Source: a virus (lineage: Duplodnaviria; Heunggongvirae; Uroviricota; Caudoviricetes). Taken from it: 26,985 nt of DNA. The position numbers and the translations under genes are program-made. Positions 21,765 to 26,985 of the stretch are shown here, piece after piece (the stretch's first letter is position 1; every line of letters starts with the position of its first letter). The notes beneath the pieces are model-generated. The model saw only the letters and a list, made by a program, of their open reading frames with translations, did no database searches and was not told the DNA's origin. The DNA is taken from the IMG/VR virus record IMGVR_UViG_2579779007_000002. One strand, written 5' to 3'.

Positions 21765-22703
21765 TTAATTACGCAGCAGCGTTGAAATATCAACGTCCAG
21801 GTCTAATTCACGGAAAGCCTGACGCAGATAATCTTCGTTAACACGCTCACCTTTACCGTGAGCCGTCATGGCTGCAAGGCGAAGTGAATGATTCAGAATG
21901 CGAAGCGCACCTGGTTTCTGCGCAATCTGCTGTAATAACTCCAGTTCTTTTTCGCCGTTAATCTGCCAGGCATCCGCAATAGCTTTTACATCGGCTTTTT
22001 TGGTTTTATTAATTGCAGTGCGCTTTGCAATACGGGAAAACAGACGGGCAAATTCAACCGTTCTGTTACCCCCCGTCATATTTGAATAAACCCGGTGATT
22101 TCCCATCAGCACAAGGCCAATACGGGTTGATTCCTGTAACAGGCGGAGTTCTTCCAGAACTTCGGCACCAAGATGATCAGCTTCGTCGATGATAACCAGC
22201 CCCTGTGTACCTTCAAGGCGACGTCGCAGGGCGCGGGAGAGCGGCCCTTTACGGCGTGGTGCGTCATTCATTCCCAGCTCAAACGCCAGTTCAGTAAGAC
22301 ATTCCAGAACGCTGGCACAGGATGGCGTAATGGTGATCATCCAGACATTGTTATTGGTGCGGCGATATTCACGGGCCGCTTCGGTTTTGCCCACACCAGG
22401 ATTGCCACATACAACAGCAATACTTTCAGTCAGGCTGGCAAAACGCATACTTGTCCAGATTTGTTTTACCGTCTGCGTTTCCACAAAGCGGGGCGGTTCA
22501 GGTAGTTCTGCAACTACATGATATTTTTCCAGCCAGCGTTGCAGCATTTGTGAAACACGCTCGTTATCCCCGTTGTACTTATCATTGATAAAACTACTGA
22601 TAGTTCCGGTAGAAAGTCCGCTCTCAAGAGCAATTTGTTTAAAGGTGGTTTCTTCATTTTCTACAAGCGTGCGCAGTCCTGCGCGAATATCGGAAATATT
22701 CAT
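21765..22703 (-). CDS. B: transposition ATPase / target DNA activator B
   Basis: 312 aa, same length as Mu B; P-loop GNPGVGKT and DEAD-like IIDEAD motifs; N-terminal helix-turn-helix. Confidence 0.9.
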   Translation of the reverse strand: MNISDIRAGLRTLVENEETTFKQIALESGLSTGTISSFINDKYNGDNERVSQMLQRWLEKYHVVAELPEPPRFVETQTVKQIWTSMRFASLTESIAVVCGNPGVGKTEAAREYRRTNNNVWMITITPSCASVLECLTELAFELGMNDAPRRKGPLSRALRRRLEGTQGLVIIDEADHLGAEVLEELRLLQESTRIGLVLMGNHRVYSNMTGGNRTVEFARLFSRIAKRTAINKTKKADVKAIADAWQINGEKELELLQQIAQKPGALRILNHSLRLAAMTAHGKGERVNEDYLRQAFRELDLDVDISTLLRN

Positions 22704-22741
22704 CTGAATAACCTCGTAATTAAATTTTGTTTAAACGTTAA

Positions 22742-24835
22742 TTAAATGGCTTTTTTACGTCTGTTCTGTTCCAGAATATCCAGCGAATGATTCAGATATT
22801 CATCACGCTCAGTTTCGTATTCATCATCATGCACTTCCTCACACCTCAACGGCTGAACGGTCACCACATTACCAACAGGGCGATAAACATTATCCAGCCA
22901 GGGTTCTGTCGTTTTTTGTTCAATAACCTGAATACCTTCATCCTCAGCATCACGTATTTTTTCCTCAGCACGCTTGCGCATTCCTTTAATACGCTGCTGT
23001 TGTTTGTGATATTCAGCCGTAACAGGAAAGGCTGCGCGTTTATTGCCGTTCCATATCGCCTCACAGATAAAGCTACCGTCCTTACGGCGTACCGTAATTC
23101 GCTCGGCATCGTGAATGTCATAGCTGATAAGTACCTTGCGACCATGTTCATCACGTAGCTCTGGCGCGTAGTAAATATTGTTCAGCCACTGGATTTCGCA
23201 GCGTCTTACCGGACGCTCCACCATCGGGCGGAACATGTCACGCAGCTCAATATCACTCAGCCACTCAATTTCAGTGTCTTCTTCCGCTAAGCGTTTTTTT
23301 CTGAACTCTACCGGGCTGTAATGTTTTCCGTTTGGTTTCATCGGCAATTCAGAATGTGGGCGGTTGTTGTACCACTCCACCCCCTCACGGATAGCCTCAA
23401 TCAGTTCTGACCAGGACGGCAGCTCGCGCATTGCGGCTTTCTGACGGGCGCTCAGTGGCTTGTCCTGTTGCAGGGCATTAAACGCTGAACGCAGATCACG
23501 ATTAAGTATTCGCAACGATTCCCGGTCAGCCCCCTTGCCGAAATAGGTGCGATACCTCCTTGCTATACGCATCGGTAACGTCCGGTTCAGGCGCTCAATA
23601 ATGCCGCGTCCCTGCGGATTTCCCGCAATACCGGTGGGGTGGTTAATCCCCAGGCGGGGCAGAATCCCGACGATCTCTTTATCCAGCATATCTGCCGTTT
23701 CACCGGAACCATTATCCGAGTAATACAGGAATGGTTTTCCGTGATTGCGAATGCCGTGTTGTATCGCCCCGGCAACAGCGAACACGTTCTCCGCAAGATC
23801 AAGACTCCAGCCAACCACAAACCGGGTTCCACCGTCGATCACAAACGTAACTTCCGGTGAAAATGGACGCCCGTGAACCGGATGCGCACATTTCAGCTTC
23901 ATACCGTGACCGTCACCAATCCAGACATAATTCACCGGCATAGCTGTCCAGTCGCGGCGGGTGAATCCTTCAAGCTGACGGTATTCACTGCCGGTAACGC
24001 GCCCTTTTTGTTTCACCACTTCCGGCAGTTTTTTCATGGCATACCGGACAACATCATAGGAAGGCATCACCTCCAGCATGTATGGTTCGTCCGCATGGCG
24101 ACGCTGCCAATCAGCGACAAAATCCTCGTAGGCTTCTGACATAGGCCTGCCGTTAGCCTGACGATACTGCGCCAGAAATTCAGGCAGCCAGCTAATTTCT
24201 TCCGGTTTTATTTCGTCGCGCTTTCCTGGTGCCAGTAACAGCAATCGTTCTGCGGCATTCTGTGCTTTGTTAAACGCAGCTATCCAACGTTTGAGCGTAA
24301 TTGCGCTCAGAGTTCGCTCTTTCCCTTTACGGGCATTAGCAGTAATGACCAAAGATTCCAGGCGTTCTTCCAGGTTACCCTGAGCTAACCGCGACACAAT
24401 AAAACGTATAGCGCTGGCACAACTGAATCCCGGCTCCTGGCTAATTCGTAGAACTTCACAGACAAGAGCAATACGCGCTTCTGCAACTTTACGTTGATTT
24501 TCCGTAAGCGCATTCAGACGCTCTTCTACCAATTGTGGCGAACCGCGATATGCCTCAACAGGCTGTACAACATTTTGTTTGCGTTCACGCTTTACAGGAG
24601 GCTGGGTAGTTATCTCCTGCGGGGCGGTTGCCATCAGTTGAGCTACATGGCGCTCACGTAACGCCCGTTGTGTAACCGGAGGGAGGCAGTCGATGCTGTA
24701 TTCAATGGTTTTTGAACCCGCACGTTTGCGCCTGAAATGCTCAGATGAGGCCAGTTTCCTTATGGAATACCGCACCCCTTGCGCAGTTCCCGGCATACCT
24801 GGTAGCCCTACAAGCTCATTAACTGACACAAACAT
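22742..24835 (-). CDS. A: DDE transposase A (MuA-type)
   Basis: 697 aa; C-terminal end ...ERDEYLNHSLDILEQNRRKKAI matches my recollection of Mu A; N-terminal domain is Mu-type winged helix but divergent in sequence. Confidence 0.9.
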   Translation of the reverse strand: MFVSVNELVGLPGMPGTAQGVRYSIRKLASSEHFRRKRAGSKTIEYSIDCLPPVTQRALRERHVAQLMATAPQEITTQPPVKRERKQNVVQPVEAYRGSPQLVEERLNALTENQRKVAEARIALVCEVLRISQEPGFSCASAIRFIVSRLAQGNLEERLESLVITANARKGKERTLSAITLKRWIAAFNKAQNAAERLLLLAPGKRDEIKPEEISWLPEFLAQYRQANGRPMSEAYEDFVADWQRRHADEPYMLEVMPSYDVVRYAMKKLPEVVKQKGRVTGSEYRQLEGFTRRDWTAMPVNYVWIGDGHGMKLKCAHPVHGRPFSPEVTFVIDGGTRFVVGWSLDLAENVFAVAGAIQHGIRNHGKPFLYYSDNGSGETADMLDKEIVGILPRLGINHPTGIAGNPQGRGIIERLNRTLPMRIARRYRTYFGKGADRESLRILNRDLRSAFNALQQDKPLSARQKAAMRELPSWSELIEAIREGVEWYNNRPHSELPMKPNGKHYSPVEFRKKRLAEEDTEIEWLSDIELRDMFRPMVERPVRRCEIQWLNNIYYAPELRDEHGRKVLISYDIHDAERITVRRKDGSFICEAIWNGNKRAAFPVTAEYHKQQQRIKGMRKRAEEKIRDAEDEGIQVIEQKTTEPWLDNVYRPVGNVVTVQPLRCEEVHDDEYETERDEYLNHSLDILEQNRRKKAI

Positions 24836-24837
24836 TT

Positions 24838-25074
24838 TTATGCCACCTTACGAGCGTAACGGCTGGGCCAGATCTCCTCCGGCGCAACACCAATAGCATC
24901 AGCAATAATGCGCTCATATTTTGGGCATTTGCGGTACAGGGCATTCTTTAAAGAATCCTGGTTTAAACCGGCTTCAATGGACAGAGAGCGTAAAGTAAAA
25001 CCTTTTACATGCACCGCCGCGACAACATGCGCGGGGTGCCAGTCCTGTTTAACAACTTCATTTATAGACATCAT
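24838..25074 (-). CDS. ner: Ner-like early transcriptional regulator
   Basis: Start set at the MM pair (25074) preceded by AAGGA, giving ~78 aa; contains DWH...IIA-A....PE.IWPSRY pattern shared with Mu Ner. Track ORF extends to 25146 (102 aa). Confidence 0.7.
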   Translation of the reverse strand: MMSINEVVKQDWHPAHVVAAVHVKGFTLRSLSIEAGLNQDSLKNALYRKCPKYERIIADAIGVAPEEIWPSRYARKVA

Positions 25075-25254
25075 TCGTTTATCCTTAAAAGTTATCTGTG
25101 CGGATAACACCGCCGGATAATCTCTGCGGATAAAGTATTGATCCACATGTGGTGCATGTAAAGCAAAAATTTGATTTTCTTTTGCCTGATATGGATCGAT
25201 TGTGTTTTCTATTGAAATTATCCTTTTGCATCAATTAGATAAGAGGAAAGAAAA
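25075..25254. promoter_or_regulatory. divergent early/repressor promoter and operator region
   Basis: Three direct (G/C)CGGATAA repeats at 25100, 25113 and 25126 (13-bp phasing); inverted repeat GTTATC-n6-GATAAC at 25091-25108; IHF-like AATCAAATTTTTG (minus strand) at 25164-25176; TTGAAA-17 bp-TTAGAT upstream of the repressor start. Confidence 0.6.
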
Positions 25255-25800
25255 ATGGATAAGCTGAAAGGAAAGTCACTTTCTTTGCCAGAAGTGACAA
25301 AAGAAAGTATCCCGGAGCGTTTGAGAGAATTAATTGGAAAAAGAAGTGTAAGGGCTGCTGCGAAAGATTGGGGGTTGTCGTTTTCCACTTTAAACAATTA
25401 CCTGACGCGAGGTACTGAACCTTCACTCAGTGTGGCTCGGCAGATAGCTGCAATTGAAGGGGTTACTATCGAATGGATATGTGGATCACATGATGATTCA
25501 CATGAGAATCACCCAATTTCAACTAACACGCATAATGAGAATACAAAACTCATTATGAACATCATTAACGCCTTGGATGCAAAGGATATTGAGCGACTAT
25601 CTAAGACTCTTGCCCTCAATGGTGCTAAGTATCTGACTCAAATGTTGGAACCCGAAAATCAAGGCTTACTGCGTCTTGAAGGACGAAAACGTGTCGCCGC
25701 GCTGCTATTAGATGATTTACCTGATGAGCGTATCAGAGAGATTTTGGAAGAAATTGAGAGCAGCAAACTCTCAAGTAGTGTAAAATCGAGAGCGGGCTAG
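25255..25800 (+). CDS. prophage repressor, XRE-type helix-turn-helix
   Basis: 181 aa, divergent from ner/A/B as for Mu c; motif KDWGLSFSTLNNYLTRGTEPSLSVARQIAAIEGVTIEWI resembles Cro/cI-type helix-turn-helix rather than a Mu-type winged helix. Confidence 0.65.
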   Translation: MDKLKGKSLSLPEVTKESIPERLRELIGKRSVRAAAKDWGLSFSTLNNYLTRGTEPSLSVARQIAAIEGVTIEWICGSHDDSHENHPISTNTHNENTKLIMNIINALDAKDIERLSKTLALNGAKYLTQMLEPENQGLLRLEGRKRVAALLLDDLPDERIREILEEIESSKLSSSVKSRAG

Positions 25801-25854: not shown

Positions 25855-26040
25855 AGTAACGCGTAGTATCAAATATTTTTTCGTTTTTAGCTTTCTTTGC
25901 GATGGTAGTATCAAATCGCATGTTGTGCGCATAACACTGTTTTATGTCATAACTGTTTGTTTTATCCCATCAAATCCCGTTTAATCCACTTTCCTCCCGG
26001 ATTTTTCACCAGTATCAAATAATTTACCTCTCTATATTCA
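25855..26040. repeat. prophage left-end terminal repeats (putative transposase binding sites L3, L2, L1)
   Basis: AGTATCAAAT at 25865-25874, 25907-25916 and 26011-26020, all in one orientation; reverse complement of 25990-26010 (...AAAAATCCGGGAGGA...) resembles the Mu left end. Confidence 0.55.
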
Positions 26041-26985
26041 GCTCAGCAGCGCGACCAACAGCACATCTGAAATGCTGGCGGCAACGCCAAAGTCGGTAAA
26101 GGCAGCCTATGACCTTGCTAACGGGAAATATACCGCTCAGGACGCTACGACAGCACAAAAAGGAATTGTCCAGCTCAGTAGTGCAACCAACAGCGCATCT
26201 GAAACGCTTGCCGCGACACCGAAAGCAGTGAAAGCAGCTAATGATAATGCGAATGGTCGGGTACCTTCTGCCCGTAAGGTGAATGGTAAGGCGCTTTCAG
26301 CGGATATAACACTGACGCCGAAAGATATTGGTACGCTTAACTCAACAACAATGTCATTCAGCGGTGGAGCTGGTTGGTTCAAATTAGCAACGGTAACCAT
26401 GCCACAGGCGAGTTCTGTTGTTTCAATTACGTTGATTGGTGGCTCGGGATTTAACGTGGGGTCACCTCAACAGGCAGGTATATCTGAACTTGTTTTGCGT
26501 GCAGGTAATGGTAATCCGAAGGGGATTACTGGTGCTTTATGGCAGCGCACATCGACAGGGTTTACAAATTTTGCCTGGGTCAATACATCTGGTGATACTT
26601 ACGATATTTACGTTGCAATCGGAAATTATGCGACAGGTGTAAATATTCAATGGGATTATACCAGTAATGCCAGCGTGACTATTCATACGTCACCAGCATA
26701 TTCTGCTAATAAGCCGGAAGGGTTAACGGACGGTACAGTTTATTCACTCTATACGCCATCAGAGCAGTTTTATCCGCCTGGCGCACCAATCCCGTGGCCA
26801 TCAGATACCGTTCCGTCTGGTTATGCCCTGATGCAGGGGCAGACTTTTGACAAATCTGCTTACCCGAAACTTGCAACCGCTTATCCGTCAGGCGTGATCC
26901 CTGATATGCGTGGCTGGACGATTAAGGGCAAACCTGCCAGTGGTCGGGCCGTATTGTCTCAGGAACAGGACGGCATTAAATCGCA
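25985..26985 (+). pseudogene. side tail fibre gene, 5'-truncated 3' fragment (runs off window end)
   Basis: Frame open from 25985 to window end with no start codon; from 26036 encodes two tandem QLSSATNS(T/A)[14 protein letters not shown] repeats and ...[68 protein letters not shown], typical of lambda Stf-like fibres. Not in the ORF track because it has no start. Confidence 0.65.

Follow-up and report, generated by a model that had tools for sequence, protein, structure and literature searches.

The DNA stretch analysed here, called the window, comprises 26,985 nucleotides of the IMG/VR virus record IMGVR_UViG_2579779007_000002. The window carries a Mu-family prophage on the minus strand, and the early-control region of the prophage, at positions 24600-25800, comprises the repressor gene c, ner and the start of the transposase gene A; a control region of 180 bp separates ner from c. 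All open reading frames (ORFs) in the window are intact. Positions 1-22750 form a backbone shared with Mu, D108 and PhiR68_1 at 97-98% identity over 91-97% of the length, and this near-identity from the transposition ATPase gene B onward is a feature of the genus Muvirus (Mu/D108-like phages). Concerning the segment 22700-26020, similarity to Mu is limited to its first 133 bases (22700-22832, 99% identical to Mu, D108 and SfMu), and the non-Mu left arm amounts to 3.2 kb. Over its full length this segment matched three E. coli chromosomes at 99.4%, and 84% of it aligned with the Yersinia phages vB_YpM_5 and vB_YpM_6 at 96% identity. The element is a member of Muvirus by its backbone and works like the Mu/D108 early region. 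We consider it quite probable that the region controls lysis and lysogeny, and contains the start of the transposase, in a functional type of transposable phage of the Mu family.

The product of c has a lambda/P22-type DNA-binding head (XRE/Cro-CI, five helices) on a Mu-type helical body of ~90 residues. The five-helix HTH_3-type domain that characterizes XRE/Cro-CI regulators was recognized by fold matches, in agreement with the Cro/cI-like helix-turn-helix described in the original prediction, and a predicted model of the protein displayed five helices in a head without a wing, together with an all-helical C-terminal domain. No match to PF02316 was found in c at E ≤ 0.1, and the winged-helix head homologous to the transposase I-alpha domain, a feature of the Mu c (Repc) family, is absent. 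Two further features of that family are present, namely the C-terminal helical domain (residues about 97-181 in Mu c) and the location of the gene at the left end, divergent from ner-A-B. Pfam detected no Peptidase_S24 domain (self-cleavage, lambda CI/LexA type) in c.

In pairwise BLASTP the C-terminal half of c showed a weak relationship to Mu c and D108 c, at their C-terminal ends (E 0.002). With a profile of the c family, scores of 86% against D108 c and 62.5% against Mu c were obtained. Profile-profile alignment with hhalign matched c residues 92-172 to Mu c residues 97-181 (94%, E 1.4e-7, 84 columns), and the C-terminal half of the Mu-c type family phrog_7148 (profile positions 74-166) matched c residues 85-175 with an E value of 2e-6. 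A joint C-domain profile retrieved XRE-headed and Mu-type proteins alike. The C-terminal tails are also similar: proteins of the Mu c family end in KKAV (as Mu c itself) or KKAG, most XRE-headed proteins end in KKAG, which is also their consensus, and the c of the window ends in KSRAG. The tail of Mu c is the recognition determinant for ClpX (PMC10584840), and ClpXP control and oligomerisation of c may be presumed by homology to Mu c. A comparison of the C-terminal domain with solved structures gave no convincing match, all top matches falling on the head. What sets c apart from Mu c is thus its head, the body being common to both, and the wholesale replacement of c implied by the original prediction was not borne out. 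Such proteins are annotated in databases as 'XRE family transcriptional regulator' or 'hypothetical protein'; the c of the window belongs to PHROG 3037, and this allele (at 99% identity) or close alleles occur in other E. coli genomes.

The transposase A begins with MFVSVNELVGLPGMPGTAQGVRYSIRK... and carries at its N-terminus the Mu-type winged helix. This region scored 29 bits against PF02316 'Mu DNA-binding domain' (cut-off 23.3), was 36.5% identical to MuA residues 3-65 (E 8e-8) and matched the solved I-alpha domain of MuA, 1TNS (E 5e-5). When an alignment of 15 A N-termini was compared with the Mu c family by hhalign, the probability was 98.9% (E 1e-17), and the N-terminal half of phrog_7148 (profile positions 9-70) matched A residues 2-63. 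The I-alpha enhancer-binding domain, a feature of the MuA family, is present in A, and binding to an enhancer is predicted from it. The DDE core and the Mu-transpos_C domain of that family were also found (PF09299, E 2e-18). The catalytic residues were placed at D308, D374 and E414, with counterparts in MuA D269, MuA D336 and the glutamate of retroviral integrase; a MAFFT alignment that set MuA E392 opposite A R429 was rejected, and E414 was taken from the integrase alignment. In spite of these common features A is not of the Mu type. It is 79% identical to the A protein of the O157 Mu-like prophage but only about 28% identical to MuA, the values by domain being 34% for I-alpha, 18% for I-beta, 20% for I-gamma and 27% for II.

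A central idea for Mu holds that homologous domains allow its repressor and transposase to recognize the same DNA. BLASTP between c and A of the window detected no similarity (the best E value, 0.44, came from the wrong region), while the positive controls were clear: Mu c and MuA were 42% identical (E 4e-12), and D108 c and A 55% (E 4e-17). Comparison of the A N-terminal family with the XRE-c family by hhalign gave a probability of 1.6%. Neither pairwise alignment nor profile comparison pointed to a repressor with a Mu c-type winged helix homologous to the A N-terminus, the outcome named in the original prediction as contrary to it. Its descriptions of the A N-terminus as a Mu-type winged helix of different sequence, and of the repressor as bearing no resemblance to it, were both upheld. 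These results support the view that repressor and transposase have no common DNA-binding domain here.

Two comparisons show how the modules travel. Between the window and vB_YpM_5, ner is identical (Ner, 100%) and A is 98.9% identical, but c is only 56% identical, indicating that c is exchanged, along with its side of the control region, independently of A. At the DNA level the two are near-identical in ner and in the 60 bp of the control region next to it, diverge between about 25135 and 25875 (c and the part of the control region on its side), and are near-identical again at the end sites; within the divergent block the head of c is more diverged than its body. Against the O157 prophage, on the other hand, identity is about 40% over the first ~80 residues of A and 80-97% over the remainder, with Ner at 51% and the c head at 30%. 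The I-alpha domain of A diverges together with the control region across lineages, just as it does between Mu and D108, which argues that its target still lies there. Taken together, the two comparisons support an uncoupling from the repressor, and do not support a loss of enhancer function. Megablast of the control region against Mu and D108 detected no similarity, and the operator regions differ from those of Mu and D108 by eye as well. Since head fold, megablast result and operator regions all differ, heteroimmunity to Mu and D108 is predicted as very likely.

At its other end A is a chimera, composed of 669 non-Mu residues and the last 28 residues of MuA. In a three-way DNA alignment of the window, Mu and the O157 prophage, the window follows the O157 type up to the shared GATGAWGAATACGA (22815-22829); past it, the window is identical to Mu to the end of A and into B. 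The Mu-like appearance of the A C-terminus and of B in the original prediction was thus correct, and the chimeric transposase is real; the mosaic turned out to be larger than proposed, with the whole 3.2-kb left arm being non-Mu. The extreme C-terminus of MuA contacts MuB and ClpX. With the crossover 28 codons before the end of A, the extreme tail stays with its cognate Mu B, and we infer that the junction keeps the A tail with its own B. The crossover constitutes a natural domain swap, and suggests that the short tail is the part that must stay matched to Mu B (and ClpX). The chimeric A is functional, because vB_YpM_5 and vB_YpM_6, which were isolated as phages, share it (98.9%).

In order to see how common the arrangement is, a profile of the C-terminal domain alone was searched exhaustively with HMMER against 1.84 billion proteins. 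As a result, 142 representatives were obtained, almost all 170-230 residues long with the domain at the C-terminus. The 115 that were apparently full-length (about 160 aa or more) were submitted to Pfam; HTH_3 heads were assigned in 57 of the 115, Phage_CI_repr in 49, the Mu-type PF02316 in 28, YfeC-like in 9 and HTH_24 in 7. Heads of at least three kinds thus sit on one c body, most often an XRE head. A locus scan with one genome per species led to 19 loci with a window-type c, in Photorhabdus, Xenorhabdus, Pantoea, Erwinia, Serratia, Yersinia, Klebsiella, Raoultella, Morganella, Sodalis and others. In 17 of the 19, ner lies directly upstream of c on the other strand, followed by A and, in most, by B. 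The first 90 residues of A in those loci are 40-57% identical to those of the window, and the I-alpha region was kept in all 16 related loci that cover the start of A. In one locus, from a Kluyvera metagenome-assembled genome (L011), an XRE-headed c is accompanied by a transposase whose full-length identity to MuA is 52%, so that repressors of this type are also found alongside the true Mu A lineage. The XRE-headed c together with an I-alpha-bearing A is the norm in enterobacterial Mu-like prophages, and Mu and D108 are the minority. Our literature search found no paper describing an XRE-headed c in Muvirus phages. The sequences are already public and isolated phages share the design, so that what is new is the interpretation rather than the type of element. 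Three new points are of use: one repressor body common to proteins with exchangeable heads, the place of the junction within A, and a matched exchange at the two ends. The features of the window are collected in Table 1.

Table 1. Positions of genes, domains and candidate sites in the window, with the evidence for each
Feature	Position	Strand	Evidence
B, Mu-type transposition ATPase, 312 aa	21765..22703	-	99.7% identical to Mu B; PF09077 and AAA_22 matches
A, chimeric transposase, 697 aa	22742..24835	-	PF09299 E 2e-18, PF02316; phrog_310 'transposase' E 1e-199
Last 28 codons of A, DDEYETERDEYLNHSLDILEQNRRKKAI	22745..22828	-	28/28 identical to MuA
Recombination junction between Sp18-like and Mu-like parts of A, in shared GATGAWGAATACGA	22815..22835	-	three-way DNA alignment
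A residues 1-62, Mu I-alpha-type winged helix (enhancer-binding type)	24650..24835	-	PF02316, 1TNS, hhalign, phrog_7148
ner, 78 aa	24838..25074	-	PF13693 E 3e-25
Candidate Ner operator, TTATC-N6-GATAA then GGATAA repeats at 13-bp spacing	25092..25133		repeats; position only
Candidate early promoter Pe, -35 TTTACA (25162-25157), 17-nt spacer, -10 AATACT (25139-25134)	25134..25162	-	consensus scan
Candidate operator O1, imperfect 16-bp palindrome GATCCACATGTGGTGC in Pe spacer	25140..25155		pattern search, conservation
Candidate O2, T-rich block TTTTCTTTTG and half-site ATATGGATC (25189-25197)	25175..25197		footprint alignment
c repressor, 181 aa	25255..25800	+	phrog_3037 'transcriptional repressor' E 7e-58, full-length
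c XRE helix-turn-helix head, residues about 17-80	25303-25494	+	fold matches
c Mu-c-type C-terminal domain, residues 90-181	25522-25797	+	C-domain homology
GC-rich hairpin overlapping c stop codon	25792..25814		terminator-like scan; kept in vB_YpM_5
Left-end transposase-site cores AGTATCAAAT (L3, L2, L1 by position)	25865-25874, 25907-25916, 26011-26020		exact copies
Prophage left end; element inward on minus strand 5'-TATAGAGAGG...	26036		junctions at five insertion sites compared
Host flank, interrupted tail-fibre gene of another E. coli prophage	26037..26985	+	99.7% to 'prophage tail fiber N-terminal domain-containing protein' genes

Seventeen related control regions follow one common plan in the order from ner to c. 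Ner itself has the HTH_35 domain (PF13693) and the place as first gene of the early operon that mark its family, and is 46-48% identical to the Ner proteins of Mu and D108. Two TTATCC-N4-GGATAA palindromes adjoining ner are kept in 15 related loci. The TTATC/GGATAA repeats of the window occupy the same position as an inverted repeat directly upstream of D108 ner, and Mu also has repeats at the matching position upstream of its own ner; we take these D108 and Mu repeats to be Ner sites. The hexamers of the candidate promoter Pe, which reads towards ner, are kept in the 17 control regions along with a 14-nt variable spacer. Beyond Pe towards c follow a conserved TTTCTTTTG block and then ATCAAT near the ribosome-binding site of c. 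An integration host factor (IHF)-like site at Pe was dropped, as it was not kept across loci.

When GATCCACWTGTGGATC was searched for with up to 3 mismatches, O1 was the sole intergenic match in the window (0.39 expected by chance), and the palindrome was kept in three phages with c proteins 65-88% identical, being perfect in one of them. The half-site of O2 lies about 50 bp from O1, towards c, and its T-rich block was found in all related loci. O1 and O2 thus appear to be the best operator candidates for c. Inside c, the minus strand at 25479-25487 (linker codons) carries GATCCACAT, the same 9-mer as at 25140-25148, and GATTCACATGAGAATC is found at 25495-25510; 5 of the 19 near-matches to TGTGGATC in the window fall within 370 bp. 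Of three close relatives, two retain this internal cluster (25479-25510) and one lacks it. Although statistically enriched, it lies in Cys-Gly-Ser codons, of which it may be a by-product, and we do not claim it as an operator. The Dam methylation site GATC is found in the candidate half-sites at 25140-25143, 25194-25197 and 25484-25487, and binding of the repressor there could therefore be methylation-sensitive.

Alignment of the c family revealed that the recognition helix S-T-L-N-N-Y (c residues 44-49) is invariant in 40 relatives that are 31-88% identical, and that the head is more conserved than the body. In immunity repressors, the reverse is usual.

The ends of the prophage also differ from those of Mu. 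The left-end core AGTATCAAAT is present in three exact copies (1.25 expected), whose spacing from the end mirrors what we take to be the positions of Mu L1-L3. The window stops short of the right end of this prophage, and statements on right ends refer to full-length relatives. There, the same non-Mu TTTGATAC sites as at the left end were found, and in vB_YpM_5 and the E. coli prophage with 99.4% identity the right end has the AGTATCAAAT core three times in inverted orientation, indicating that both ends match the imported transposase. All four complete related E. coli prophages have TA...TA termini with 4-bp duplications (CGCG, TAAG, AGCC and CGAA), and related prophages occupy different chromosomal sites with target duplications. 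The TG...CA termini and 5-bp duplication of the MuA family were accordingly not seen in this prophage type, as judged from the related prophages, whereas in the O157 relative with the 79% identical A the termini are TG...CA and the repeat measures 5 bp. Transposable prophages of Leptospira have been reported to end in TA-TA, with 6-bp repeats (PMC8705779); our literature search found no paper on 4-bp duplications. In E. coli FDAARGOS_1059 (L004/L025), a 99.4% identical prophage lies between two different truncated ycj-region genes, with flanks that share no duplication, which suggests a Mu-type adjacent deletion or rearrangement. In the window, the insertion presumably inactivates the tail-fibre gene of the other resident prophage.

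Several observations weigh against the reading of the region that we favour below. The Pfam match of c itself to HTH_3 falls below the curated threshold. O1 varies among loci whose c heads are nearly identical and share the same STLNNY recognition helix, and the c head may instead read the conserved TTGATCC/ATCAAT elements. The invariance of STLNNY is itself partly a retrieval artefact, as the searches used shared words and the pattern STLNNY. The 14-nt Pe spacer did not recur significantly more within loci (self mean 7.7/10) than between them (cross mean 7.3/10, p = 0.10), and clear upstream repeats of the spacer were found in some loci only, such as a perfect 10-bp inverted repeat in L014. 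A role of the variable spacer as specificity determinant was likewise weakened by the finding that loci with different spacers have nearly identical c heads. A consensus scan of the plus strand revealed no promoter for c, candidates picked by hand were poor, and no enhancer could be identified.

The last result raises the possibility that the I-alpha-like N-terminus of A is vestigial and that transposition proceeds without an enhancer, with nothing to couple or uncouple. MuA lacking I-alpha is in fact active under some in vitro and in vivo conditions (PMC3362531). A vestige would not be expected to be retained in every one of the 16 loci covering the A start at 40-57% identity, about equal to that of the whole protein, nor to diverge with ner and c as it does between the window and O157; we regard this explanation as unlikely. 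The weak Pfam match could also mean that the XRE ORF encodes some other regulator, or is a cargo gene at the phage end, instead of being the lysogenic repressor. This seems extremely improbable in view of its Mu c position and orientation divergent from ner in 17 of 19 loci, its full-length match to phrog_3037 'transcriptional repressor', its Mu c C-domain with a KKA-type tail, and the lack of any other repressor candidate between ner and the left end.

Read strictly, the original prediction implies that a Mu-type c was recently replaced in this phage, through a module swap, by an unrelated Cro/CI-like repressor, producing a novel immunity newly uncoupled from the transposase. The absence of similarity between c and the A N-terminus and the exchange of the c region independently of ner and A, as seen with vB_YpM_5, agree with this, and to that extent the proposed uncoupling stands. 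The C-terminal half of c is nevertheless homologous to Mu c, and the XRE-headed form is the majority class of its family and the usual partner of ner and A in many genera of the Enterobacterales, leaving no special event in this phage. The 'new immunity type' is new relative to Mu and D108, but the same c is found at 99% identity in other E. coli genomes. Moreover, the accompanying A is itself not Mu-type, and c, ner and A therefore came in together. Taken as a whole, a recent swap is quite unlikely. It is also very unlikely that the prophage is a dead recombinant with a non-functional A. The window covers only its left 26 kb, and the related prophage in FDAARGOS_1059 has non-matching flanks; yet the ORFs are intact, phages with a 98.9% identical A form plaques, and four related prophages lie at different sites with clean target duplications.

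We thus favour a layout in which c would bind operators at the divergent Pe, with the palindrome at 25140-25155 as best candidate, and shut off ner-A-B, while Ner would bind the TTATC/GGATAA repeats just downstream of Pe. Having kept a Mu I-alpha-type winged helix, A presumably still uses an enhancer, but unlike in Mu and D108 this enhancer could not be shared with the repressor through a common DNA-binding domain. The layout is the common state of enterobacterial Mu-like prophages and not a recent swap. The recent event in this lineage would be a recombination that fused a Mu backbone with a non-Mu arm (left end, c, ner and A codons 1-669), the arm deriving from an O157 Sp18-like lineage; the right-end sites of full-length relatives are non-Mu as well and have the same origin.

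A broader scheme, which we put forward tentatively and hold to be rather doubtful, is that the Mu c C-domain is an exchangeable body for oligomerisation and ClpX-gated turnover whose heads have repeatedly changed, with the shared-head state of Mu and D108 a derived minority. If so, that state arose through the capture, by an XRE-type ancestor, of a duplicated I-alpha domain from the transposase, and control of transposition in lysogens of XRE-headed phages would depend on transcriptional repression alone, or on an overlap of unrelated sites. Mu is the reference system for transposition control. Most of its enterobacterial relatives lack Mu-style shared recognition, yet keep the I-alpha domain and the Mu-type repressor body, and they therefore offer natural material on what the overlap of enhancer and repressor sites contributes.

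Among known systems, the c proteins of Mu and D108 (PF02316 head) resemble that of the window in gene position divergent from ner, homologous C-terminal domain, similar tail and similar length. Their head is a winged helix homologous to MuA I-alpha, whereas that of the window is an XRE five-helix helix-turn-helix with no detectable relation to it. The lambda CI, P22 c2 and 434 repressors carry an S24 (LexA-like) self-cleavage domain where c has the Mu c-type C-domain. MuA shares with A the I-alpha-type N-terminus, the DDE core, the Mu-transpos_C domain and the identical last 28 residues, but its domains I-III are only 18-34% identical and it acts on an end-site core CGAAA and TG...CA ends, in contrast to the TTTGATAC core and TA...TA ends of the window type. 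The O157:H7 Sp18-like Mu-like prophage (L005) has the related A, an XRE-headed c, ner and the same end-site motif, and differs in having its own B (49% identical to Mu B) and its own A tail, in addition to the divergent Ner and c head. The closest isolated relatives, vB_YpM_5 and vB_YpM_6 (MT374853 and MT374854; Muvirus), have the identical Ner, the near-identical A, the same ends and a Mu backbone, and differ in a c allele of 194 aa and in the c-proximal control region. All genes in their records are annotated as 'hypothetical protein'; they were isolated as infectious, plaque-forming phages in a paper that does not discuss the divergent c, ner and A (PMC10434027). The closest precedent for the mosaic is D108, which, compared with Mu, likewise has a heterologous left-end cassette (c, ner and A N-terminus) on a Mu backbone. 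The D108 swap stops about 60 codons into A, and D108 c remains homologous to the N-terminus of its A (55%). In the window it extends over 669 codons of A and the left end, and in full-length relatives over the right-end sites too, and c and A are unrelated.

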